64,000 bases of DNA, taken from contig OY970067.1 of NCBI GenBank assembly GCA_963705305.1, positions 2,816,001-2,880,000 of the forward strand, in the 5' to 3' direction. Within the stretch, counting starts at the first letter, position 1; each line of letters starts with the position of its first letter. Below the pieces are notes generated by a model. The model saw only the letters and a program-made list of their open reading frames with translations, was not told the DNA's origin and did not search any database. The DNA is from an uncultured Methylomirabilota bacterium. GTDB taxonomy: Bacteria > Methylomirabilota > Methylomirabilia > Methylomirabilales > 2-02-FULL-66-22. Positions 10,537 through 41,472 of this stretch are shown piece by piece. A program made the translations under genes and the position numbers.

Positions 10537-11925
10537 ATGCCCGAGCAGGCGATCACGGTGATCGGCGGCGGCCTGGCCGGCTGCGAGGCGGCCTGGCAGG
10601 CCGCACAGCAGGGGCTCCCGGTCCGCCTCTTCGAGATGCGGCCGCGGGCAACGACCGGGGCCCATCAGACCGACCGGCTGGCCGAATTGGTCTGCAGCAA
10701 CTCCCTCAAGTCGGAGTCCCCGGAAGACGCCAGCGGCCTGCTCAAGGCCGAGATGCGGGCGCTGGGCTCGATCATCCTGGCCTGCGCCGAGGCCCATCGC
10801 GTCCCGGCCGGCTCGGCCCTGGCCGTGGACCGGGACGCCTTCGCCGCCGCGGTGACCCGCACCATCACGGAGCACCCCCGGATCGCCGTGGTCCGGGACG
10901 AGGTGCCGGCGCTGCCGGCCGCGCGGCCCCTCATCGTGGCCAGCGGCCCCCTTACCTCCGACCGCCTGGCCGCCGACCTGGCGGCCCGCTTTGCATCGCT
11001 CCTCGGCGGGGACCCGGCCGCGCCGCAGCACGGCCGCACCGGTCAGCTGCTGCACTTCTATGACGCCATCTCGCCCATCATCTCGGCCGAATCCATCGAC
11101 CGGGAGATCGTCTTCGCGGCGGCGCGCTACGGCAAGGGGGGCGCCGACTATCTCAACTGCCCGCTGACCCGGGAAGAGTACCTGGCCTTTCGCGAGGCGC
11201 TGCTCCAGGGCGAGCGATATCCGCTCCACGACTTCGAGCGCCCGAACTACTTCGAGGGCTGTCTCCCCATCGAGGAGCTGGCGGAGCGGGGGGAGGACAC
11301 CCTGCGCTACGGCCCCCTGCGGCCCGTCGGCCTCACGGATCCCCGCACGGGCCGGGGGGCGTACGCCGTGGTCCAGCTCCGGCAGGAGAACCGGGGCCCC
11401 GACGGGCGACCCACCATGTACAATCTGGTGGGCCTCCAGACCCGGTTGCGGCGGGGGGACCAGGCCAGGGCCCTGCGGCTCATTCCCGGCCTGGGGCAGG
11501 CGGAGATCCTTCGCTACGGGAGCGCCCATCGCAACACGTTCATCGCCGCACCGCTGCTCCTCGAGGCCACGCTGCAATTTCGGGGGGACCCGGCGCTGTT
11601 CTTCGCGGGTCAGCTCACCGGCGTGGAGGGCTACCTGGAGTCGGCGGCCACCGGCCTCCTGGCCGGCCTGAACGCGGCGCGCCTGTCGCGAGGCGAGCCG
11701 CCGATGGTGCCGCCGCCCACCAGCATGCTGGGGGGGCTCCTCCGCTACCTCACGCAGGCCGATGTGCGATCGTTCCAACCCATCAACGCCAACTTCGGCC
11801 TCCTGCCCCCCCTGGATCGGGTCGTCCGCGACCGCCGCCAGCGAAACCGCCTGCTGGTAGAGCGGGGGCGGGCCGATTTCCATGGCTGGCTGCTTCCGCT
11901 GGAGGCGGCTTTGCGCCACCTGTGA
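10537..11925 (+). CDS. trmFO: tRNA (uracil-5)-methyltransferase TrmFO (Gid)
   Basis: IGGGLAGCEAAWQ, AELVCSNSL, FYDAISPI, YLNCPL, FAGQLTGVEGY, FQPINANFGL. Confidence 0.95.
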   Translation: MPEQAITVIGGGLAGCEAAWQAAQQGLPVRLFEMRPRATTGAHQTDRLAELVCSNSLKSESPEDASGLLKAEMRALGSIILACAEAHRVPAGSALAVDRDAFAAAVTRTITEHPRIAVVRDEVPALPAARPLIVASGPLTSDRLAADLAARFASLLGGDPAAPQHGRTGQLLHFYDAISPIISAESIDREIVFAAARYGKGGADYLNCPLTREEYLAFREALLQGERYPLHDFERPNYFEGCLPIEELAERGEDTLRYGPLRPVGLTDPRTGRGAYAVVQLRQENRGPDGRPTMYNLVGLQTRLRRGDQARALRLIPGLGQAEILRYGSAHRNTFIAAPLLLEATLQFRGDPALFFAGQLTGVEGYLESAATGLLAGLNAARLSRGEPPMVPPPTSMLGGLLRYLTQADVRSFQPINANFGLLPPLDRVVRDRRQRNRLLVERGRADFHGWLLPLEAALRHL

Positions 11926-33036: not shown

Positions 33037-33569
33037 CTTCGTCACCTCCTCTGGGGCCGTCGGCCCCTTCAGCCGGGCGTCTCTGGGGGGGGTGTCCCGG
33101 CCTCCCGGACAGCCGGGACATATCGGCAGGCCGCCCCCGCGATTCCACTGCTCAGCAGGGCTCCCGCCAAGATGTCAGAGGGAAAACGTGCCCCGGGAGA
33201 ATCCGCGACACCCCCCCCAGGACGGCCACGCCGAGAAAAACGGCCGCTTGCCGCGGGTCCCAGGCGGCCTTGGCGGCCTCTCGCCCCCCGCCGCTCCCCC
33301 TTCCCAGTACGCAGGGCGATTCACCGCCGTTTCGCAGGGGGGGCCGGGGCTCCCCCCGGGAGATAGAGAACGCGTATAATCGTGGACGCCGAAGGGGCCC
33401 GCCTGAAACAGGCCGGGGGAAGCGGGCGTACTGTGAGGGTACATGGGCTCTGGGAGGGCGGGGGAGCCCGGACGGACACGCCGCAGTGACGGCAAGCCAT
33501 GGACGGGCCCCGGACGTGGAAGGCGTGGTGGGCCAGAGCTGGGGAACGTCCGGTACCGGGAGGCAGGAC

Positions 33570-34733
33570 ATGTTCCGCAGCCAGCGGGAAGCCCGCAGGT
33601 CACATGGCACCTTCCCCCTGAGTCATCTCCTCCTGGTGGGTGCCCTGCTGGCCTGCGCCGGCGTGGCCCATGCCGAGGCTCCGAGCCGGGCCGCGGCAGG
33701 CGAGTGCACGGTCTCGCTCCCCGAGATCTACAACCGGGTGTCCCCCGCGGTGGTCCGGATTACCTCCTCGGCAATCAACCCGTACAACGTCGCCAATCGG
33801 GTGAGCCGGGCCATCGGGTCGGGGGTGATCATCGATCCCGGTGGCCTCGTCCTCACGAACGCCCACGTCGTCTTCGGCCGCCAGGCGATCACGGCGACCC
33901 TGGATGACGGCACCACCATCCCGGCCGAGGTGATCGGGAGCGACCCCCTCTTCGACATCGCCGTCCTCCGAATCCCGCAACCGGCCGCCGGCACCCTGCC
34001 GGTGGCGGTGGCCGGGAGCTCCGGCCGCCTGCGCGTGGGGGAGGAGGTGGTGGCGATCGGGAATCCGCTGGGCTTGGACCAGACCATGACGCACGGGGTG
34101 GTCTCGGCCATCAACCGGGTGCTGCCCGAGATGTCCCTTGTCGGGATGGAGCCGCTGATTCAAACGGACGCGCCGATCAACCCCGGGAACTCCGGCGGCC
34201 CCCTGGTGAACCGTTGCGGGGAGGTCGTGGGGCTCACGGCCGCCTTCCTCTCCGATGCCCAGAACATCGGCTTCGCCATTCCCATCGACCTCGTGAAGGG
34301 TGTCCTCCCGGCGCTGCTCACAACGGGGCGGATCATCCGCCCGTGGCTCGGGATCCAGGGACAACTGGTGGCGCCGGCCCTGAAAGCCCTCCTGCGCGTG
34401 CCCCTGGCGCCGGGATTCCTGGTCGAGGTTGTGGAGCCGGGGAGCCCCGCCGAGCAGGCCGGGATCCGGGGCGGGCAGCTGGATGTCATCATCGGCACTC
34501 AGGAGTTCCTCCTGGGCGGCGACATCATCACCCGGGTCAACGGGCAGCCGGTGGATACGCCCGAACGGCTCACGCACGTGCTGCACGGCTGGCAGGTGGG
34601 GGACACGCTTCACCTAGAGCTGGCGCGAGACGGCCAGCCCCTGGAGCTGACGCTGCTGCTCGTCGAGCGGCCGATTCTCCCCCAAGACATTCACCCCGAC
34701 GGCTCCATGGCGCGGACGTCACGCCGGCCGTGA
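33570..34733 (+). CDS. HtrA/Deg-family serine protease with one PDZ domain
   Basis: GSGVII, LTNAHVV, DIAVL, IQTDAPINPGNSGGPL, PDZ (GSPAEQAGI...GDII). Confidence 0.92.
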   Translation: MFRSQREARRSHGTFPLSHLLLVGALLACAGVAHAEAPSRAAAGECTVSLPEIYNRVSPAVVRITSSAINPYNVANRVSRAIGSGVIIDPGGLVLTNAHVVFGRQAITATLDDGTTIPAEVIGSDPLFDIAVLRIPQPAAGTLPVAVAGSSGRLRVGEEVVAIGNPLGLDQTMTHGVVSAINRVLPEMSLVGMEPLIQTDAPINPGNSGGPLVNRCGEVVGLTAAFLSDAQNIGFAIPIDLVKGVLPALLTTGRIIRPWLGIQGQLVAPALKALLRVPLAPGFLVEVVEPGSPAEQAGIRGGQLDVIIGTQEFLLGGDIITRVNGQPVDTPERLTHVLHGWQVGDTLHLELARDGQPLELTLLLVERPILPQDIHPDGSMARTSRRP

Positions 34734-34860
34734 GGAGGACGCGGCGGGGAGCGGCCTGGTGAACCGCTCACGCGGGAGCGCGGCGACGATTGATGGCGGC
34801 GCGCCGCGGGCTCGGGCAATCCGAGCTGGCGGGCGGGAGCGCCTTCGAGGAGGGTTGTGC

Positions 34861-35355
34861 ATGGCGGATCGAAGATCCTTGCGGGGGATTCTTCTGGCAG
34901 TGGGCCTGGTGGTCGGCGCCGGAGGGCTCGGCGCACCCGGGGCCGCCGCGGCTCAACCGGCGCCCGAAAAGCCGGTGATCTATAATTGGAGCCTGGAGCC
35001 GGGGGCCGTCTTGGATGAGATCATGCACCAGACCTATGACGCCGCCTTCCAGGTGGTGGACTTCACGGATCGCGATCACATCTACGTCCCGCCCCACCTG
35101 ACCGCAGAGACCGCACCCATCGCCCCCGTGGATGCCAGCGGCCGGCTGATCGAGGGGAAGGTGGTCGTGTTCTTCATTATCACGGCGGCCGGGCGGGTCG
35201 CGCACCCCGTCATTCTCAGGTCCAGCGACCCGCGCCTGAGCGCGGCGGTGCTGAAGGCGCTGGCGCACCGGGTGTATGAGCCTGCCTGGATCGATGGCCG
35301 AAATGTGGCCATGGCCACCGGGGAGGAGGTTGGCCTCCCTCCGTCGGAGTTATGA
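34861..35355 (+). CDS. secreted TonB C-terminal-like domain protein
   Basis: Signal peptide; EGKVVVFFIITAAGRV...ILRSSDPRL...YEPAWIDG. Confidence 0.65.
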   Translation: MADRRSLRGILLAVGLVVGAGGLGAPGAAAAQPAPEKPVIYNWSLEPGAVLDEIMHQTYDAAFQVVDFTDRDHIYVPPHLTAETAPIAPVDASGRLIEGKVVVFFIITAAGRVAHPVILRSSDPRLSAAVLKALAHRVYEPAWIDGRNVAMATGEEVGLPPSEL

Positions 35356-35546
35356 AACGGGCCGGTCCGGACGCCTCGCGGCAAGGAGGCCCGCCGGGGA
35401 AGCGGGGCTGAACTGAACGCTGGCCTACTGGCTATGGGGATTGTGTCGGACCCGCGGGGCCGTGGGAGGGGGTTTCTGAGTACAAACTACAGGGACAGCT
35501 GCTGGGAGGGACCGAGCGGGACACCCAGGCATCCAGCGCACATTCA

Positions 35547-35608
35547 GGGTGCCGGGGGAGGGACTCGCACCCTCGTGGGTCTCTCGGGCGGGCACTTCGA
35601 GCCACGCT
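35547..35608 (-). pseudogene. degenerate tRNA 3' fragment (tRNA-Leu-like), probable att remnant
   Basis: Minus strand GAGGG-TGCGAGT-CCCTC (T-arm with one loop change) then CCCCGGC-A-CC(C); about 80 bp downstream of the recombinase 3' end; no 5' half. Confidence 0.6.
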
Positions 35609-36458
35609 CATGCAGATCGGTCCGAGGTCACGGACGCCATTGTACGGGTCAAGCAGCGCCAGGAACTCAGCGGTCAAGAGAGAGTGGCTCACGAGCTTGC
35701 ACCAGTGCTGGACAGCCCTCCGGGACTTCCGGGGCGTCGGAGGGGCCAACTCGCACCAGTTCTCTTCTGTTGCGAGTTGTGGAGGAGCTGGGTGAGGGCA
35801 TTGGCCGCCCGCAGCTTGTCCTCCTTGGTGACCCTGGCGTCGATCGTGGTCGCCTTGATGCTCGCGTGCACCACTTACTCCTGGACGACCGCCAGGTCGT
35901 TCCCGCTGGCCCGGTCCAGGTGGGTGGCGTAGGTGTGCCGACAACTGTGAGTGGCGTACCGGGGATCCAGCCCCACGGCCGCCATGAGGCCTTTCACCAC
36001 CCGCCAGACCCCCTTCCGGGTGAGGGGCCCCCGCTGGCCGAGGAAGACCGGGGCCTCCTCGGACACATTCTCCCCAAGGTCCCGCTTCCAGGTCAGGAAG
36101 GCTTTCAGGTGCGTCTTGAGGTCCGGGGGGATGAAGACCTCCCGCTGCTTGTTCCCCTTGCCCTGGCGGACCGCCAGTGAGGCCTGGCCGTAGCCCAGGA
36201 GGCAGTCCCGGACTTGGGGGCCGGCCACCTCGGAGGCCCGGAGGCCGGAAGAGAGAAGGGGGTCGAGTGGCCGCAACACCATAGACGTCGTCACCTTTCA
36301 CCACGACGGCAGTCGTCACCGTCAGTGATCGTTCATCCGGTGGTTCCCTTTCTCGAGAGGCCCGCCTAGGTTCGGTCCAACTTACCTCCCGGTATCCATC
36401 CTGAGCGGAAGCCCGGCCCATCGGGTACGGTGTCGCCTTCCATCTGGGAGGTGAATCG

Positions 36459-36785
36459 ATGCCCCGAGCTCCGCGGCGCCGACGGTGCCCCTTCTGTCAG
36501 ACTCTCTTCCGTCCGCATCCCCGCCTGGGGCCGCGGCAATGGACCTGCGGGGCGCCCGCCTGTCAGCAGCAGCGGCATGCCGCCAGCTGTCGGGCTTGGC
36601 GCCGCCGGAACCGTGCCGTGACCCGCACGCACTACCGGGACTACGTGCACCCGGCCCGGGCGCGGGCCGCGCCCACGCCGGTCTCCCCGCGCCAGGTGGC
36701 GAGCTTCCTGCGCGGCGTGCTCCCTGCGATGCGAGACGCGATTATGGCGCAAGGGCAACCCCCATGCGGGGTTCGGGCCCCCTAG
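36459..36785 (+). CDS. small basic Cys-rich putative zinc-finger protein inside IS21
   Basis: Strong GGGAGGTG RBS; CPFC...CGAPAC...C; Arg-rich. Confidence 0.75.
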   Translation: MPRAPRRRRCPFCQTLFRPHPRLGPRQWTCGAPACQQQRHAASCRAWRRRNRAVTRTHYRDYVHPARARAAPTPVSPRQVASFLRGVLPAMRDAIMAQGQPPCGVRAP

Positions 36786-36956
36786 AATGCACCCCGGACG
36801 GCGCGAGACGCGATCTGGTCGGTTCGGGCTGGGTTCCCGCGGGGTTACACCCTCCTAACTGCATGAGGGCGCGAGACGCGATCTGGCGTCAAGCCCTGAT
36901 CCCACGGGCCCTTCGCCCCCGTTAGTGCGCCGCGGGAAGGTGATACGAGACGCGAT
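36732..36956 (+). repeat. array of four 11-bp direct repeats at ~70-bp period
   Basis: CGAGACGCGAT at 36732, 36804, 36872 and 36946 (spacing 72, 68, 74). Confidence 0.9.
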
Positions 36957-37009
36957 AGGCGGATCGGGAGTTCGGTGGTACACCCGGGGCATCCGGAAGG
37001 AGGTGCCCC

Positions 37010-38509
37010 ATGCTGGCCGCCGCGATTCAAGCCGAGATCCTCCGGCTCCGCTATGCCGAGCGCTGGGGCTACAGCCAGATCGCTCGCCACCTCGGCATCC
37101 ACCGGGAGAGCGCCCGGAAGGTGGCGCTGCGCCGGAGCGTGGCCTTGGTGCCCGCGCCGCCGGCGCCGCGGACCACGGTGGTCACGCCGTTCCGGGCCCG
37201 CATCCAGGCGCTGCTCACCGAGGACCCGGCGCGCTCGGCGGTGACGATCTTCCAGGTGCTCCGGCAGGAGGGCTACCGGGGCGGCAGCAGCGCGCTGCGG
37301 GGCGCCGTGCGCCGGCTGCGGCCGAGTGCCGCGCCAGCTGCCATGGCCACGCTCAGCTTCGGCCGCGGGGAGGCCGCCCAGGTGGACTGGGGCGAGTTCG
37401 GCGACGTCTTCGGGATCGGCCGGGCCGTCCATGCCTTCGTGCTCGTCCTGTGCTACTCCCGGCTCTTGACCGTCACCTTCACCTTCAGCCAGACCCTCGA
37501 GGCGTTCCTGCGGTGCCACGAGGCTGCCTTCGCCTTCGTGGGCGGCTGCCCAAAGGAGTGCTGGTACGACAACCTGGCGACGGCGGTGGCCGAGCGGCAC
37601 GGGAAGCTCGTCCGCTTCCACCCGCGCTTCCTGGCGTACGCCGGCCACCACCGCTTCCGGCCGGTGGCCTGCAACGTGGGCAAAGGGAACGAGAAGGGGC
37701 GGGTCGAGGACGCCATCAAGTACCTCCGGACGAACTTCTGGCCGGGGCGGACCTTCCGCGATCTCGCCGATCTGAACACGCAGGCCCAGGCGTGGCGGGA
37801 CACGATCGCGAACCAGCGCGAGCACCGCGTGACCCGGAAGATCCCCGCGCTCCTCGTCGCCGAGGAGCGGCCGGCCTTGCTCCCACTGGGGGAGCCGTAC
37901 GACACGGACGAGGTGCGGAGCGTGGTGGTGCCGCCGAGCTTCCGCGTGGCCTTCGACGGGAACCGGTACTCGGTCCCCTGGCGCTTGGTGGGGAAGCCGC
38001 TCACGCTGCGAGCGGATGCGGACACGGTGACCCTCTGGTATGGCACCCATCGCGTGGCGCGGCATGGCCGCTGCTGGCGGCGCGGGGTGGAGGTGGTGCT
38101 CCCGGCCCACGCCGACGGGCTCCTGGCCACCAAGCCCGGTGCGCAGGCCCACTGGCAGGTCGAGGCCGTGCAGGCGCTGGGGCCCGCGGCCCGGCAGTAC
38201 CTGGAACTCATCCGGGCGGGGACGCGCTCGCTCCGGACGGAGTTGGACCACCTGCTGCTCCTCACGACCCTCTATGGCCCGGCCGCGGTGGAAGCCGCGC
38301 TCGCCGCGTGCCTCGCCCAGGCCATCGTCGGGAGCCACCAGGTCGAGCAGTGGCTCCGGCTCCAGGACACGCCGCCCGTGGCGCCGCCCCCACTCACGCT
38401 CGGGGATCCCCGATTGAGCGTGCCGCCGGTGCGCCCCAACCTGCAGCGGTACGATGCCCTGCTCCTCGACGCCGATCCGGAGGACCATGATGGCAACCCC
38501 GACGCTTGA
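37010..38509 (+). CDS. istA: IS21 transposase IstA
   Basis: N-terminal HTH; DDE motifs AQVDWG, WYDN, KGRVE; FDGNRYSVP. Confidence 0.93.
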   Translation: MLAAAIQAEILRLRYAERWGYSQIARHLGIHRESARKVALRRSVALVPAPPAPRTTVVTPFRARIQALLTEDPARSAVTIFQVLRQEGYRGGSSALRGAVRRLRPSAAPAAMATLSFGRGEAAQVDWGEFGDVFGIGRAVHAFVLVLCYSRLLTVTFTFSQTLEAFLRCHEAAFAFVGGCPKECWYDNLATAVAERHGKLVRFHPRFLAYAGHHRFRPVACNVGKGNEKGRVEDAIKYLRTNFWPGRTFRDLADLNTQAQAWRDTIANQREHRVTRKIPALLVAEERPALLPLGEPYDTDEVRSVVVPPSFRVAFDGNRYSVPWRLVGKPLTLRADADTVTLWYGTHRVARHGRCWRRGVEVVLPAHADGLLATKPGAQAHWQVEAVQALGPAARQYLELIRAGTRSLRTELDHLLLLTTLYGPAAVEAALAACLAQAIVGSHQVEQWLRLQDTPPVAPPPLTLGDPRLSVPPVRPNLQRYDALLLDADPEDHDGNPDA

Positions 38510-39257
38510 GGAGAAGCTGACCCAGCTCCAGCTCATGAGTGCCCCCGCGTTCCTCGCCGCGTGGGGCGAGCGGCATCCCGCCGAACGCGCGGCAGTCCGC
38601 GCGGTGCTCGAGGGGCTCGTCGATCGGGAGCTCACGCGGCGGAGCGAGCAGAAGGTGGCGGCGCGGATCAGGGCCGCGCGCTTCGTCCAGCTGCAGACGG
38701 CAGACACGTTCAACTTCGAGTACAGCGTCGCCACCCGGAAGCTCCGGAGTCGCTACCTGAACCTCTTGGCCACCGACCTCGTGGTCGAGGGGATCGGGGC
38801 GCTGTTCGTCGGGGGGAGTGGCTTGGGGAAGACGCATCTCGCCCGGGCCTTGGGCTATGCCCAGTGCCAACGCGGGCAGAGCGTCCTGTTCACGTCGCTC
38901 GCCGCCATGGTGAACCACCTGAGCGCGGCGGAGGCGACGAAGACCTTGCACCGGGCGCTCAAGACGTACCAGAGCCCCGGGTTGCTGGAGATCGACGAGG
39001 TCGGGTACGTCAGCCTGCGCCAGCCGGAGAGCCACCTCGTGTTCCAGGTGATCTCCGTCCGGCATGACCGGCGGAAGCCAACGGTGGTCACCACGAATCG
39101 CACGTTTGGCGAGTGGAATCAGATCTTCGCCGACGACGCCGTGGCGCACGCCATCCTGGACCGGCTCGCGGAGCGGGCCGAGGTCTTCCACCTGGAAGGG
39201 ACGAGCTATCGCGAGACCCACCGCCGCCCCGCGCCGAAGGTCGCGACACCTTCGTAG
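38490..39257 (+). CDS. istB: IS21 helper AAA+ ATPase IstB
   Basis: Walker A GGSGLGKT, Walker B IDEVGY, TTN, AILDRL, GTSYR; overlaps the istA end. Confidence 0.93.
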   Translation: MATPTLEEKLTQLQLMSAPAFLAAWGERHPAERAAVRAVLEGLVDRELTRRSEQKVAARIRAARFVQLQTADTFNFEYSVATRKLRSRYLNLLATDLVVEGIGALFVGGSGLGKTHLARALGYAQCQRGQSVLFTSLAAMVNHLSAAEATKTLHRALKTYQSPGLLEIDEVGYVSLRQPESHLVFQVISVRHDRRKPTVVTTNRTFGEWNQIFADDAVAHAILDRLAERAEVFHLEGTSYRETHRRPAPKVATPS

Positions 39258-39877
39258 TCGGGGTCCGCTGCCCGCGTCTCCCTGCGACGGGCGTGTTGGC
39301 GCCTCAAATCTCCCGCGCCTGCGCACCCGTCTGCCTCGCGCCTCACAGTGCCGGGATCCATCGTGGCGCTGCCGGTGCCCTTCCCGCCGAAAAGCGACGA
39401 TCTCGATGGTGGCGCCTCCAGTCGAGCAGGCCCCAGGACCGGATCGGCCCTGTAGTGCCCTGCTGGCGGGCCTGGGTTGCCCGAGATTCGGCGAACCGGC
39501 GGAGGCGGGTCAGGTTCCTCCGCGGTCAGAGAACGGATCTCGTGCTGGACGGTAGGCATGAGCGCATCTCCTTGCATCGCAGCTGACCCGACCGCCGCCG
39601 GCCGCGCGCCAGGGTGAAGCTCATTCCCCGGGACCCCCGGAGCGGCTACATGCGCCACCCCGAGGCGATCGGGCGTCAGGCCAGAGTGTTCGCTGGGCGG
39701 CCTCGGGCAGAGCGGGCGGTCCGGAGGCGGTCTGCCGCCGCGCGCCGTTGCTCCACGGTCCCCGCCCGACCGGGCCCTGGCCGGCGCACTCGGATCGCGG
39801 GGAGGGGAACCACCCAGAAGGCCGAGGTCGCCTTCCCGTCGCGGCCCAGCGGCTCTCCTCTCCCGTTTTGCCTTCCA

Positions 39878-40112
39878 GTTGCGCGGGGACTGCGCCGCCG
39901 TTCATCAGGGTGCTAACCCCACTCCGGAAAAATCTCACCGCCACGTCGCCAAGAATGCCATGGTTGAAATGGACGGATCACCCAGGGACCGGACGGCGGC
40001 GAGTTCCCTGGGGGCGTCTCGGAGCACGGAGGAAAGCCAGCTGAACGACTTGCATCGAGGAGCCTTGGCGCCATGGTGGTTCAAGCGTTTCTATGGTGCA
40101 GGGCTCATTTTT
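39878..40112. repeat. right copy of ~235-bp direct repeat
   Basis: 79/80 core identity with 25201-25280; ends just before TTGACA (40117) upstream of lysA. Confidence 0.9.
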
Positions 40113-40212
40113 GATTTTGACAGGCCGGGTCACGTGTGATACCCATTCCCCGAATTGGCCGGCATTCACGCCGCCGTTCCCCTCTCCCCATCGGGAAGAA
40201 AGGCGTTGCGGG

Positions 40213-41472
40213 ATGCACGAGTTTCGTTTTCGCGGTGACGCATTGCATTGCGAGGGGGTCCCCGTCGCGAAGATCGCGGCGGAGGTCGGCACCCCGGCCT
40301 ACGTGTACAGCCATGCGACCCTGACCCGCCATTTCCGGGTGTTCGACGAGGCCTTCGCGTCGGTCCCCCACCTGGTCTGCTTTGCCTTGAAGGCCAACGC
40401 CAACCTGGCCGTCCTGCGGCTGTTCGCCGGATTGGGCGGTGGCCTGGACGTGGTGTCAGCCGGCGAGCTGTTCCGGGGGCTCCGGGCGGGGGTTCCGCCC
40501 CAGCGCATCGTCTATGCCGGCGTCGGCAAATCGCGGGACGAGATCGCCTACGCCCTGAAGTCCGACATCCTCATGTTCAACGTGGAGTCGGAGCAGGAAC
40601 TGCGCCTGATCCACGAGGTGGCCTCCGGCATGGGGAGCACGGCCCGGGTAGCGCTGCGGGTGAACCCCGACGTGGATCCCAAGACCCACCCCTACATCTC
40701 CACGGGCCTGCGCCAGAGCAAGTTCGGGATCGCCATCGACCAGGCGGCGGACCTGTACGAGGCGGCCCGCCGCCTCCGGTCCCTGGAGGTGGTGGGGATC
40801 CATCAGCACATCGGATCGCAGATCACCAGCGTGCGCCCCTTCGTGGATGCCCTGGAGAAGACGGCCTCGCTGGTGCGGAGGCTGCGCGATCGGGGGACGC
40901 ACATCCGCTACGTCGACGTGGGCGGCGGGCTGGGGATCACTTACAAGGACGAAGAGCCGCCGCTTCCCGGCGACCTTGCGCGAGGCCTGCTGGAGATCGT
41001 GCGGGATCTGGGCGCCACGCTCCTCCTCGAGCCGGGGCGGGTGCTGGTCGGCAACGCCGGGATCCTGGTCACGCGGGTCCTGTACACCAAGGAGACGCCG
41101 GCCAAGAACTTCCTGGTGGTGGACGCCGGGATGAACGACCTGGCCCGGCCGAGCCTCTACGGCTCGTACCACGCCATCCAGCCGGTGCAGCGGACGGCCG
41201 GCCGGCCCGAGGTGACGGTGGACGTCGTGGGACCCATCTGCGAGTCTGGGGATTTCCTGGCCAAGGAGCGCCGGCTGCCGGCCTGCGAGCCCGGGGAGCT
41301 CCTGGCGGTGATGTCGGCCGGGGCCTACGGCCACACCATGTCCTCCAACTACAACGCACGGCCGCGGGCACCGGAGATTCTGGTGCGCGGGGACCGGTAC
41401 TACGTCGTGCGCGAGCGGGAGACGCTCGATGATCTGATCCACGGGGAGCACACTCTGGACGAGCTGGCGTGA
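40213..41472 (+). CDS. lysA: diaminopimelate decarboxylase
   Basis: GTPAYVYS, FALKAN, HPYISTG...SKFG, HIGSQI, EPGR, GPICESGD, MSSNYN. Confidence 0.96.
   Translation: MHEFRFRGDALHCEGVPVAKIAAEVGTPAYVYSHATLTRHFRVFDEAFASVPHLVCFALKANANLAVLRLFAGLGGGLDVVSAGELFRGLRAGVPPQRIVYAGVGKSRDEIAYALKSDILMFNVESEQELRLIHEVASGMGSTARVALRVNPDVDPKTHPYISTGLRQSKFGIAIDQAADLYEAARRLRSLEVVGIHQHIGSQITSVRPFVDALEKTASLVRRLRDRGTHIRYVDVGGGLGITYKDEEPPLPGDLARGLLEIVRDLGATLLLEPGRVLVGNAGILVTRVLYTKETPAKNFLVVDAGMNDLARPSLYGSYHAIQPVQRTAGRPEVTVDVVGPICESGDFLAKERRLPACEPGELLAVMSAGAYGHTMSSNYNARPRAPEILVRGDRYYVVRERETLDDLIHGEHTLDELA

Follow-up and report, generated by a model that had tools for sequence, protein, structure and literature searches.

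The 64,000-nucleotide (nt) stretch of DNA analysed here (the window; part of contig OY970067.1 in assembly GCA_963705305.1 of an uncultured Methylomirabilota bacterium) carries an insertion sequence (IS) of the IS21 family with three genes, namely istA for the transposase, istB for an ATPase and an extra third open reading frame (ORF) 5' of istA, which we call orfZ. Between the last codons of orfZ and a point 53 nt before the istA ATG (37010) lies an array of about 215–225 nt in which an 11-nt box, CGAGACGCGAT, occurs four times, 465–690 base pairs (bp) in from the left end of the element (Table 1). A first-pass annotation made from the letters alone had described four exact 11-mers separated by 57–63 nt, the first in a zinc-finger ORF where it encodes RDAI and the last about 50 bp before istA, and all of this was found to be correct. 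It overlooked both that the array lies inside an IS and its origin from in-frame 23-codon repeats in proteins of the zinc-ribbon family.

The four boxes are the only exact matches to CGAGACGCGAT on either strand of the window, and in 100 dinucleotide shuffles of the window the mean number of matches was 0.05 and the maximum 1, with four matches in none of the 100. When one mismatch was allowed, a single additional box-like site appeared, at 10796. The start-to-start distances are 72, 68 and 74 nt, corresponding to spacers of 61, 57 and 63 nt, and boxes 2 and 3, as had been noticed before, have a longer core of 19 nt in common, GGCGCGAGACGCGATCTGG (repeat family D6). In the whole genome the box was found 18 times, with 12 of these in three copies of the element and six as scattered singles, while the reversed pattern, used as control, was found once.

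The repeat proved to be conserved in relatives. At least 358 metagenome stretches contain a relative of orfZ, and our comparison covered 87 loci, of which 80 came from metagenomes (the best 80 of 358 confirmed), three from species genomes and four from the genus of the window. A chain of four boxes, each having two mismatches or fewer, was present in 77 of the 87 loci; five of the others were cut by a contig end, two lacked exactly the 68-nt unit 2, two were without box 4 and one, a weak partial homologue, was boxless. The spacing was 71–72, 67–69 and 73–75 nt in 75 of the 77 chains and the other two had 78 or 73 nt at one position, with the triplets (72,68,74) in 22 chains, (72,68,73) in 16, (71,67,74) and (71,69,74) in 11 each, and a few near neighbours of these. 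Departures from the exact box, the counts of which are given for each copy in Table 1, fell mostly at position 7, and in one subfamily G7 is replaced by T in all three non-coding boxes (the T7 variant, CGAGACTCGAT) while the coding copy 1 retains G. Between the boxes, conservation is limited to small islands (CAAG at offset +19, a G-T-T near +40 and TA(A/G) near +52), and the spacers otherwise drift and carry little information. The distance from box 4 to the istA ATG varies between 54 and 67 nt in the 37 loci listed, and the constant distances between boxes are thus not a mere lack of divergence time. Three loci (L098, L100 and L105) do not continue from box 4 into the normal beginning of istA, with another N-terminus and a frame of about 680 codons in L098 and L100 and with no Shine-Dalgarno sequence and ATG at the expected place in L105.

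Five IstA relatives of the same phylum, at 37–41% identity, were examined as well (two further matches from unpublished genomes being left out), and these had neither orfZ nor the array, showing that the two features travel together. The array is confined to the orfZ-carrying subgroup of IS21, and it is a real and strongly conserved cis element of this previously undescribed three-gene subgroup. Outside of it, a degenerate two-box pattern matched 15 loci in a viral collection, none of them with the zinc-ribbon profile, so that these are chance or unrelated repeats; protein scans of the viral collection with the representatives P0258, P0212 and P0184, and tblastn searches of plasmid and phage collections with P0258, P0001, P0184 and P0198, gave no match.

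That the conserved entity is the nucleotide sequence could be seen from codon usage in 61 unique orfZ sequences. R92-D93-A94 is written as CGA-GAC-GCG in all 61 (entropy 0), compared to three to five synonymous codons and entropies of 1.1–1.8 bits at other conserved Arg and Ala columns, and to a CGA share of 8.3% among the Arg codons of these ORFs. The twelfth base, being the Ile wobble position just after box 1, is free (A 36, T 21, C 7). Further along, A97 is GCG in 59 of 60 sequences, Q98 is CAA in 46 of 54, as opposed to CAG in 84–90% at Q27 and Q36, and V105 is GTT in 53 of 56, with other conserved Val codons being mostly GTG or GTC. Since synonymous sites are frozen in box 1, selection acts on the nucleotides even within the ORF, and the array is under nucleotide-level purifying selection. 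In 63 arrays, boxes 2–4 stand in nine different combinations of frames relative to box 1, and with respect to box 4 istA lies in frame 0, 1 or 2 in 19, 20 and 20 of 59 loci, respectively. Boxes 2–4 are hence not translated in any conserved way, because their frames differ between loci.

Table 1. Features of the IS21-family element and of its box array, with positions given in window coordinates
Feature	Position	Strand	Remarks
Target-site duplication GTCGAG, left	36262..36267	.	Same hexamer at both element flanks
IS21-family insertion sequence	36268..39420	+	3,153 bp; 5'-TGG...CCA-3' ends; bounds from comparing three genome copies
Left terminal inverted repeat	36268..36320	+	Two direct sub-repeats, L1 36274-36295 and L2 36299-36320, 25 nt apart (D9)
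orfZ, zinc-ribbon protein of 108 amino acids (aa)	36459..36785	+	C10, C13, C30, C35; helical C-terminal part; no Pfam family
Box A1, CGAGACGCGAT	36732..36742	+	Within orfZ, codons R92-D93-A94-I95; exact in 76/77 four-copy relatives
Secondary box CAAG, unit 1	36750..36753	+	Offset +19 from box start; repeated in unit 3, 36890-36893
Secondary box GTT, unit 1	36771..36773	+	Within GGGGTTCGG; near-invariant columns in alignment A3
GTT counterparts	Unit 2: 36844-36846; unit 3: 36911-36913 (CTT)	+	
orfZ stop TAG	36783..36785	+	TA(A/G) kept at same offset in units 2 (36856-36858) and 3 (36923-36925)
Box A2	36804..36814	+	Non-coding; exact in 61/77 four-copy relatives
Box A3	36872..36882	+	Non-coding; exact in 58/77 four-copy relatives
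Box A4	36946..36956	+	Non-coding, within conserved TGATACGAGACGCGATAGGC; exact in 57/77
Conserved GGTGGTACAC box, istA leader	36974..36983	+	Near-invariant columns in alignment A3
istA Shine-Dalgarno AAGGAGG	36997..37003	+	Flanks GGGGCA / TGCCCC able to pair
istA, DDE transposase, 499 aa	37010..38509	+	Pfam rve 2.9e-09, Mu-transpos_C_2 3.9e-23
istB, AAA+ ATPase	38454..39257	+	Pfam IstB_IS21 (PF01695) 2.3e-52; in-frame ATG at 38487 after GGAGGA
Right end	39294..39420	+	Terminal TGGTGGCGCCTCCA (39407-39420) and internal copy TGTTGGCGCCTCAA (39294-39307), D15
Target-site duplication GTCGAG, right	39421..39426	.	

The protein OrfZ belongs to an unnamed family and orfZ is a genuine gene. A word-indexed search yielded 116 clusters of OrfZ homologues at 58–94% identity and of about 107–115 aa, and a profile search of 1.84 billion representatives yielded 748 clusters at E ≤ 0.001, most of them 130–180 aa long and matched through their N-terminal 60–70 residues. 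Across the 748 clusters the N-terminal zinc ribbon is the sole conserved part of the protein, and in the alignment of homologues its four cysteines are invariant or nearly so. In the AlphaFold (AF2) model of OrfZ, a confident one at a predicted local distance difference test (pLDDT) value of 86.5, a zinc knuckle is combined with a helical hairpin and a pair of short helices, the last of which contains RDAI; a homodimer prediction gave a score of 0.01 (mark 0.42), which speaks neither for nor against a dimer. Searches with OrfZ gave nothing in Pfam, nothing in the PDB using Foldseek at E ≤ 0.001, a best Z of 3.3 using VIA-align and only unnamed clusters in the ESM Atlas.

Of 149 distant representatives that the profile search had yielded, 35 had at least one [RQ]D[AE][ILM] motif after residue 60 and 16 had two to four such motifs, which were nearly always 23 residues (69 nt) apart, with no occurrence in 149 reversed control sequences. 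The tails between the motifs were mostly polar, of low complexity and dissimilar even inside one protein, and a look-up of eight of these homologues gave 'hypothetical protein' on short contigs only. The array in the window is therefore the same four-unit structure, descended from these 23-codon protein repeats, in which the frame now comes to a stop in unit 1 and units 2–4 are out of frame but have retained the boxes. One distant relative, a single locus (L115) from the same class and with 69% G+C, was compared at the DNA level. It has three in-frame boxes, CAAGACG(A/C)GATC, 69 nt apart, in an array that adjoins DUF669-like and ParB-helix-turn-helix (HTH) genes and not istAB. Its Gln codons were CAA in six of seven cases in the repeats, against CAG in three of three in the N-terminal part and 15 of 16 in two downstream ORFs, a bias which, in this one locus, indicates that translated boxes are subject to the nucleotide-level constraint as well.

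The number of units can also vary by one. In the two loci without unit 2 (L032 and L088), the remaining spacing is 72 and 74 nt, and one cluster of distant homologues (P0212 and P0268) has members of 190 and 167 aa, differing by one 23-residue repeat, so that recombination between boxes evidently occurs. It is conceivable, though we regard it as doubtful, that the periodic box array, and not the encoded peptide, would be the ancestral functional unit of the zinc-ribbon gene family of mobile elements (748 clusters at 50% identity), with the protein motifs being the translated shadow of a signal read by the zinc ribbon. If that were true, the IS21 lineage would show this signal laid bare, out of frame yet letter-perfect, as a cis-regulatory array that is indifferent to being translated.

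With regard to function, the first-pass annotation had offered two possibilities, of which the phased protein-binding sites are the better supported, if indirectly, by the invariance of the boxes, their fixed number and spacing and the selection on nucleotides, with binding itself being a proposal from these sequence features. These features call for a factor that reads the 11-nt box sequence-specifically, that is present wherever orfZ is, that is more conserved than the end specificity of IstA and that is sensitive to spacing. The left end of the element is kept in relatives but differs strongly by subfamily, while the box is constant, and as the ends change and the box does not, the box is read by something other than the specificity with which IstA binds the ends. 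The simplest candidate would be the zinc-ribbon domain of OrfZ, which is encoded directly 5' of the array and inherited together with it in every case, and the simplest role would be control of the downstream genes. The reading that we tentatively favour, and to which we would give something short of even confidence, is that the boxes are phased sites for a sequence-specific factor, probably OrfZ, gating istAB expression. Transcription would then enter from the left end or from outside the element and OrfZ would be made first, whereupon it would occupy the phased boxes, on DNA in the preferred version, and limit read-through expression of istA and istB. The outcome would be a negative feedback on transposition, following the same logic as InsA of IS1 or the Mu repressor on its operators. 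We infer both the effect of box binding on istAB and its substrate, for which double-stranded DNA is favoured over single-stranded RNA because the linker length is held to within 1–2 nt in the apparent absence of an RNA fold.

Several results weigh against this reading. Neither by sequence nor by fold could OrfZ be related to known DNA- or RNA-binding proteins, a scan of positions 36200–39500 found no sigma-70-like promoter and no intrinsic terminator, and the box itself is only an imperfect dyad (CGAG-A-CGCG). Distances of 72, 68 and 74 bp furthermore correspond to 6.9, 6.5 and 7.0 helical turns, so that the four boxes cannot all face the same side of a B-DNA helix. Finally, one metatranscriptome contig of 794 nt, which belongs to a relative and is about 84% identical, extends without a break from the 3' end of orfZ through the array and into istA, which means that the region can exist as RNA; it gives a weak hint of co-transcription of orfZ and istA, in a contig that shows no ends or processing.

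That contig would also suit an operator acting at the RNA level, in which OrfZ or an RNA-binding protein of the host reads the boxes as single strands in the orfZ-istAB transcript, with their occupancy altering translation or stability of istA, the Shine-Dalgarno sequence of which lies in a possible hairpin. Such an operator would be similar to the action of the phage Mu protein Com on mom mRNA. OrfZ is very Arg-rich, the stretch between box 4 and istA is slightly more stable in folding than its shuffles on the forward strand (mean z of –1.2, against –0.6 on the reverse strand), and all boxes lie on the coding strand in each of the 77 four-box chains. The orientation is however uninformative, because it is fixed by synteny, the contig from the RNA library could be DNA carry-over, and a tight linker length without a fold is not required of single-stranded spacers. 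We consider such an RNA operator to be possible but unlikely.

Alternatively, the array could act on DNA in transposition, as an internal accessory site or enhancer that helps to assemble or restrain a transpososome of IstA and IstB, similar to the internal activation sequence of phage Mu. IstA is a Mu-type DDE transposase by its Mu-transpos_C_2 domain, it has about 137 C-terminal residues to which Pfam gave no match, the array sits inside the element and close to its left end, and the number of four boxes can be set beside the tetramer that IstA forms on supercoiled ends according to PMC10122671. The box is, on the other hand, unlike the terminal repeats, which change between subfamilies while it does not, there are no inverted copies of it at the right end, and the array of the distant relative L115 adjoins genes other than those of IS21, so that it is not tied to IstA. 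Altogether this makes a role in transpososome assembly improbable.

The second possibility raised by the first-pass annotation, a repeat-spacer non-coding RNA, found no support. A unit of about 70 nt with an invariant repeat does resemble arrays that are processed into pieces of that size, or a tandem riboswitch-like leader, and short hairpins can be drawn by eye in single sequences; those hairpins used registers that differ between sequences, at stabilities no better than in shuffles. RNAalifold on 63 arrays gave –2.24 kcal/mol and 11 pairs, none of them with compensatory changes. Its use on MAFFT alignments of the whole array or of single units, averaged pair probabilities and a column-pair covariation scan together showed nothing beyond the trivial pairing of CGCG with CGCG of the boxes and signals driven by subfamilies. 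The folding z of spacers compared to dinucleotide shuffles was –0.25 to –0.5 on both strands, with 0 to –0.5 in sub-windows, and Rfam gave no match at E ≤ 1 on either strand of positions 35500–40500. Alignment of the spacers among homologous elements, as the annotation had suggested, showed drift by point substitution without compensatory covariation. The spacers are orthologous and fixed in number, diverging by point substitution and not by spacer gain, which argues against a repeat-spacer guide array.

No guide function emerged from the searches for targets either. The spacers matched the genome only in the element's own copies, giving none of the suggested insertion targets or other mobile elements, no word of at least 10 nt was common to the array, in either strand, and the ends or flanks of the three element copies, and when 16S rRNA and 53 tRNAs were examined for complementarity, the box did no better than shuffled boxes. 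A candidate antisense partner after istB, CGCGTCTC, with a partial antisense match to the box, was found solely in the window copy among 44 relatives. CRISPR arrays have repeats of about 23–55 nt, spacers that differ through acquisition and cas genes nearby. The array is similar to these, and to the bridge RNA of IS110 or the omega RNA of IS200/605, in its repeat-spacer look beside a mobile-element gene, but the repeat here is 11 nt (19 at most), the four units are fixed, the spacers can be aligned and there are no cas genes, such that CRISPR had been rightly dismissed. From the guide-RNA transposons it differs in having no complementarity to ends or targets, no fold and no IS110 or TnpB genes. 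We hence see a structured or processed RNA as very improbable.

That boxes 2–4 are translated by read-through, frameshifting or hopping, or are decaying relics of protein repeats, is hardly credible, as the nine frame combinations and even istA phases leave no single conserved recoding route and rule out such a product as a family trait, and as relics would neither hold 11 letters invariant amid diverging surroundings nor explain the frozen synonymous sites of box 1, even though distant homologues do translate two to four motifs 23 residues apart and unit 3, like unit 1, reaches a stop after 17 codons of the RDAI frame in 35 of 63 arrays.

To our knowledge, IS21 elements have been described as having two genes, with the terminal repeats as their only cis sites. 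Like IS21 and IS5376, the present element has an operon of istA (DDE) and istB (AAA+), TG...CA ends, terminal sub-repeats and a short target duplication, but it is 3.15 kilobases (kb) long and has in addition the zinc-ribbon gene and the four-box array between its left end and istA. A literature search combining IS21 with zinc, covering the list of papers and part of their abstracts, gave no description of a zinc-ribbon gene or four-box array in IS21. The boxes and the terminal repeats bound by IstA are both short direct repeats within the element and thereby candidates for protein binding, but the canonical L1/L2-R1/R2 repeats are terminal, about 23 bp apart and found at both ends, as given in PMC10122671, while the boxes are found towards one end only, 465–690 bp inside the element, with a spacing of about 70 bp and an unrelated sequence. 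No reverse-strand copy of the box was found in the element at one mismatch or fewer.

InsA of IS1 is a small zinc-finger protein that is encoded upstream of the transposase frame, binds the DNA of the element and represses transposase expression; it binds the terminal repeats, and its frame becomes fused to that of the transposase by frameshifting. OrfZ resembles InsA, and OrfA of the IS3 family, in being a small protein encoded 5' of the transposase frame, but its candidate sites are arranged as a phased array in the interior of the element, and relatives keep no frame that would allow a fusion. In phage Mu, repeated boxes of about 11 bp between regulator and transposase genes serve regulation, transpososome assembly or both, with the internal activation sequence overlapping the repressor operators, and Mu also encodes Com, a small zinc-finger protein that acts on mom mRNA. 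Our array has in common with the Mu operators that boxes of about 11 bp lie between the gene of a candidate regulator and that of a Mu-type transposase, but at about 70 bp they are spaced far more widely, and the searches related OrfZ neither in sequence nor in fold to Mu c, to domain I-alpha of MuA or to Com. Plasmid iterons, finally, are repeats of 17–22 bp, about two helical turns apart and beside a rep gene and an origin; these differ from the 11-bp boxes with their period of about 70 bp and no rep gene.

As to the element as a whole, the family is defined in PMC10122671 by istA and istB, TG...CA ends and terminal sub-repeats, and the element has all of these features, i.e. a DDE IstA (with the rve match at 37.6 bits versus a cutoff of 32.6), a downstream IstB and TG...CA ends with sub-repeats, together with a short target duplication. 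Its ends read TGGCCGCAAC... and ...GGCGCCTCCA, and the repeat pair at the right end is 113 nt apart, wider than the canonical spacing. The 6-bp duplication is supported by uninterrupted copies of the target element, in which the two sides overlap by 6 bp. A Pfam search with the minus-strand ORF to the left of the element gave no match. A frame of 521 codons (36925–38490) overlaps istA in phase with box 4, but the window copy alone has it open, relatives of the same phase having a much shorter frame, and it is most likely an artefact of high G+C. Directly 3' of the istB stop (39262–39295) there is a stem, GCCCGCG...CGACGGGC, and at the same place in many of 44 relatives the form CCCGCG...CGACGGG was seen with a variable loop.

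The element sits in another repeated element of about 1.1 kb (window 35552–36267 and 39421–39843), which is uninterrupted at positions 4765956–4767088 of the genome (G000:C1), partial at 3833663–3834550 and present elsewhere in more diverged copies; its minus strand has, as judged by eye, a tyrosine-recombinase-like stretch (...HSCRHTYATHL...). The third copy of the orfZ-carrying element (G000:C1:4197908–4203737; L003/L004, L136) is interrupted behind istA codon 255 by another element of the IS21 family, about 2.7 kb long, the IstA of which is 32% identical and of which the genome has further copies. A degenerate relic of a related element (G000:C1:1709113–1709749; L008, L121), about 74% identical over its left part, has end-like 39-mers and an orfZ remnant with a TGA, and no box array could be detected in it. 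The neighbouring host genes in the window (33270–35355 and 40093–41472), for an HtrA-like serine protease with PDZ, a TonB C-terminal-domain protein and an Orn/DAP/Arg decarboxylase, look ordinary and unrelated to the element.

The IS21 family is a main model for Mu-type, ATPase-assisted transposition, and the subgroup seen here, which is widespread in the environment, has a third gene and a strictly conserved internal array in addition. This suggests an element-encoded layer of control that was not previously described for the family. The array also provides a clean natural example of selection on a sequence as nucleic acid, within a reading frame as well as beyond it, which bears on how protein repeat motifs in small proteins of mobile elements are to be read. 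If OrfZ does bind the boxes, the 108-aa protein and its 11-nt site would make up a compact system with a new specificity.

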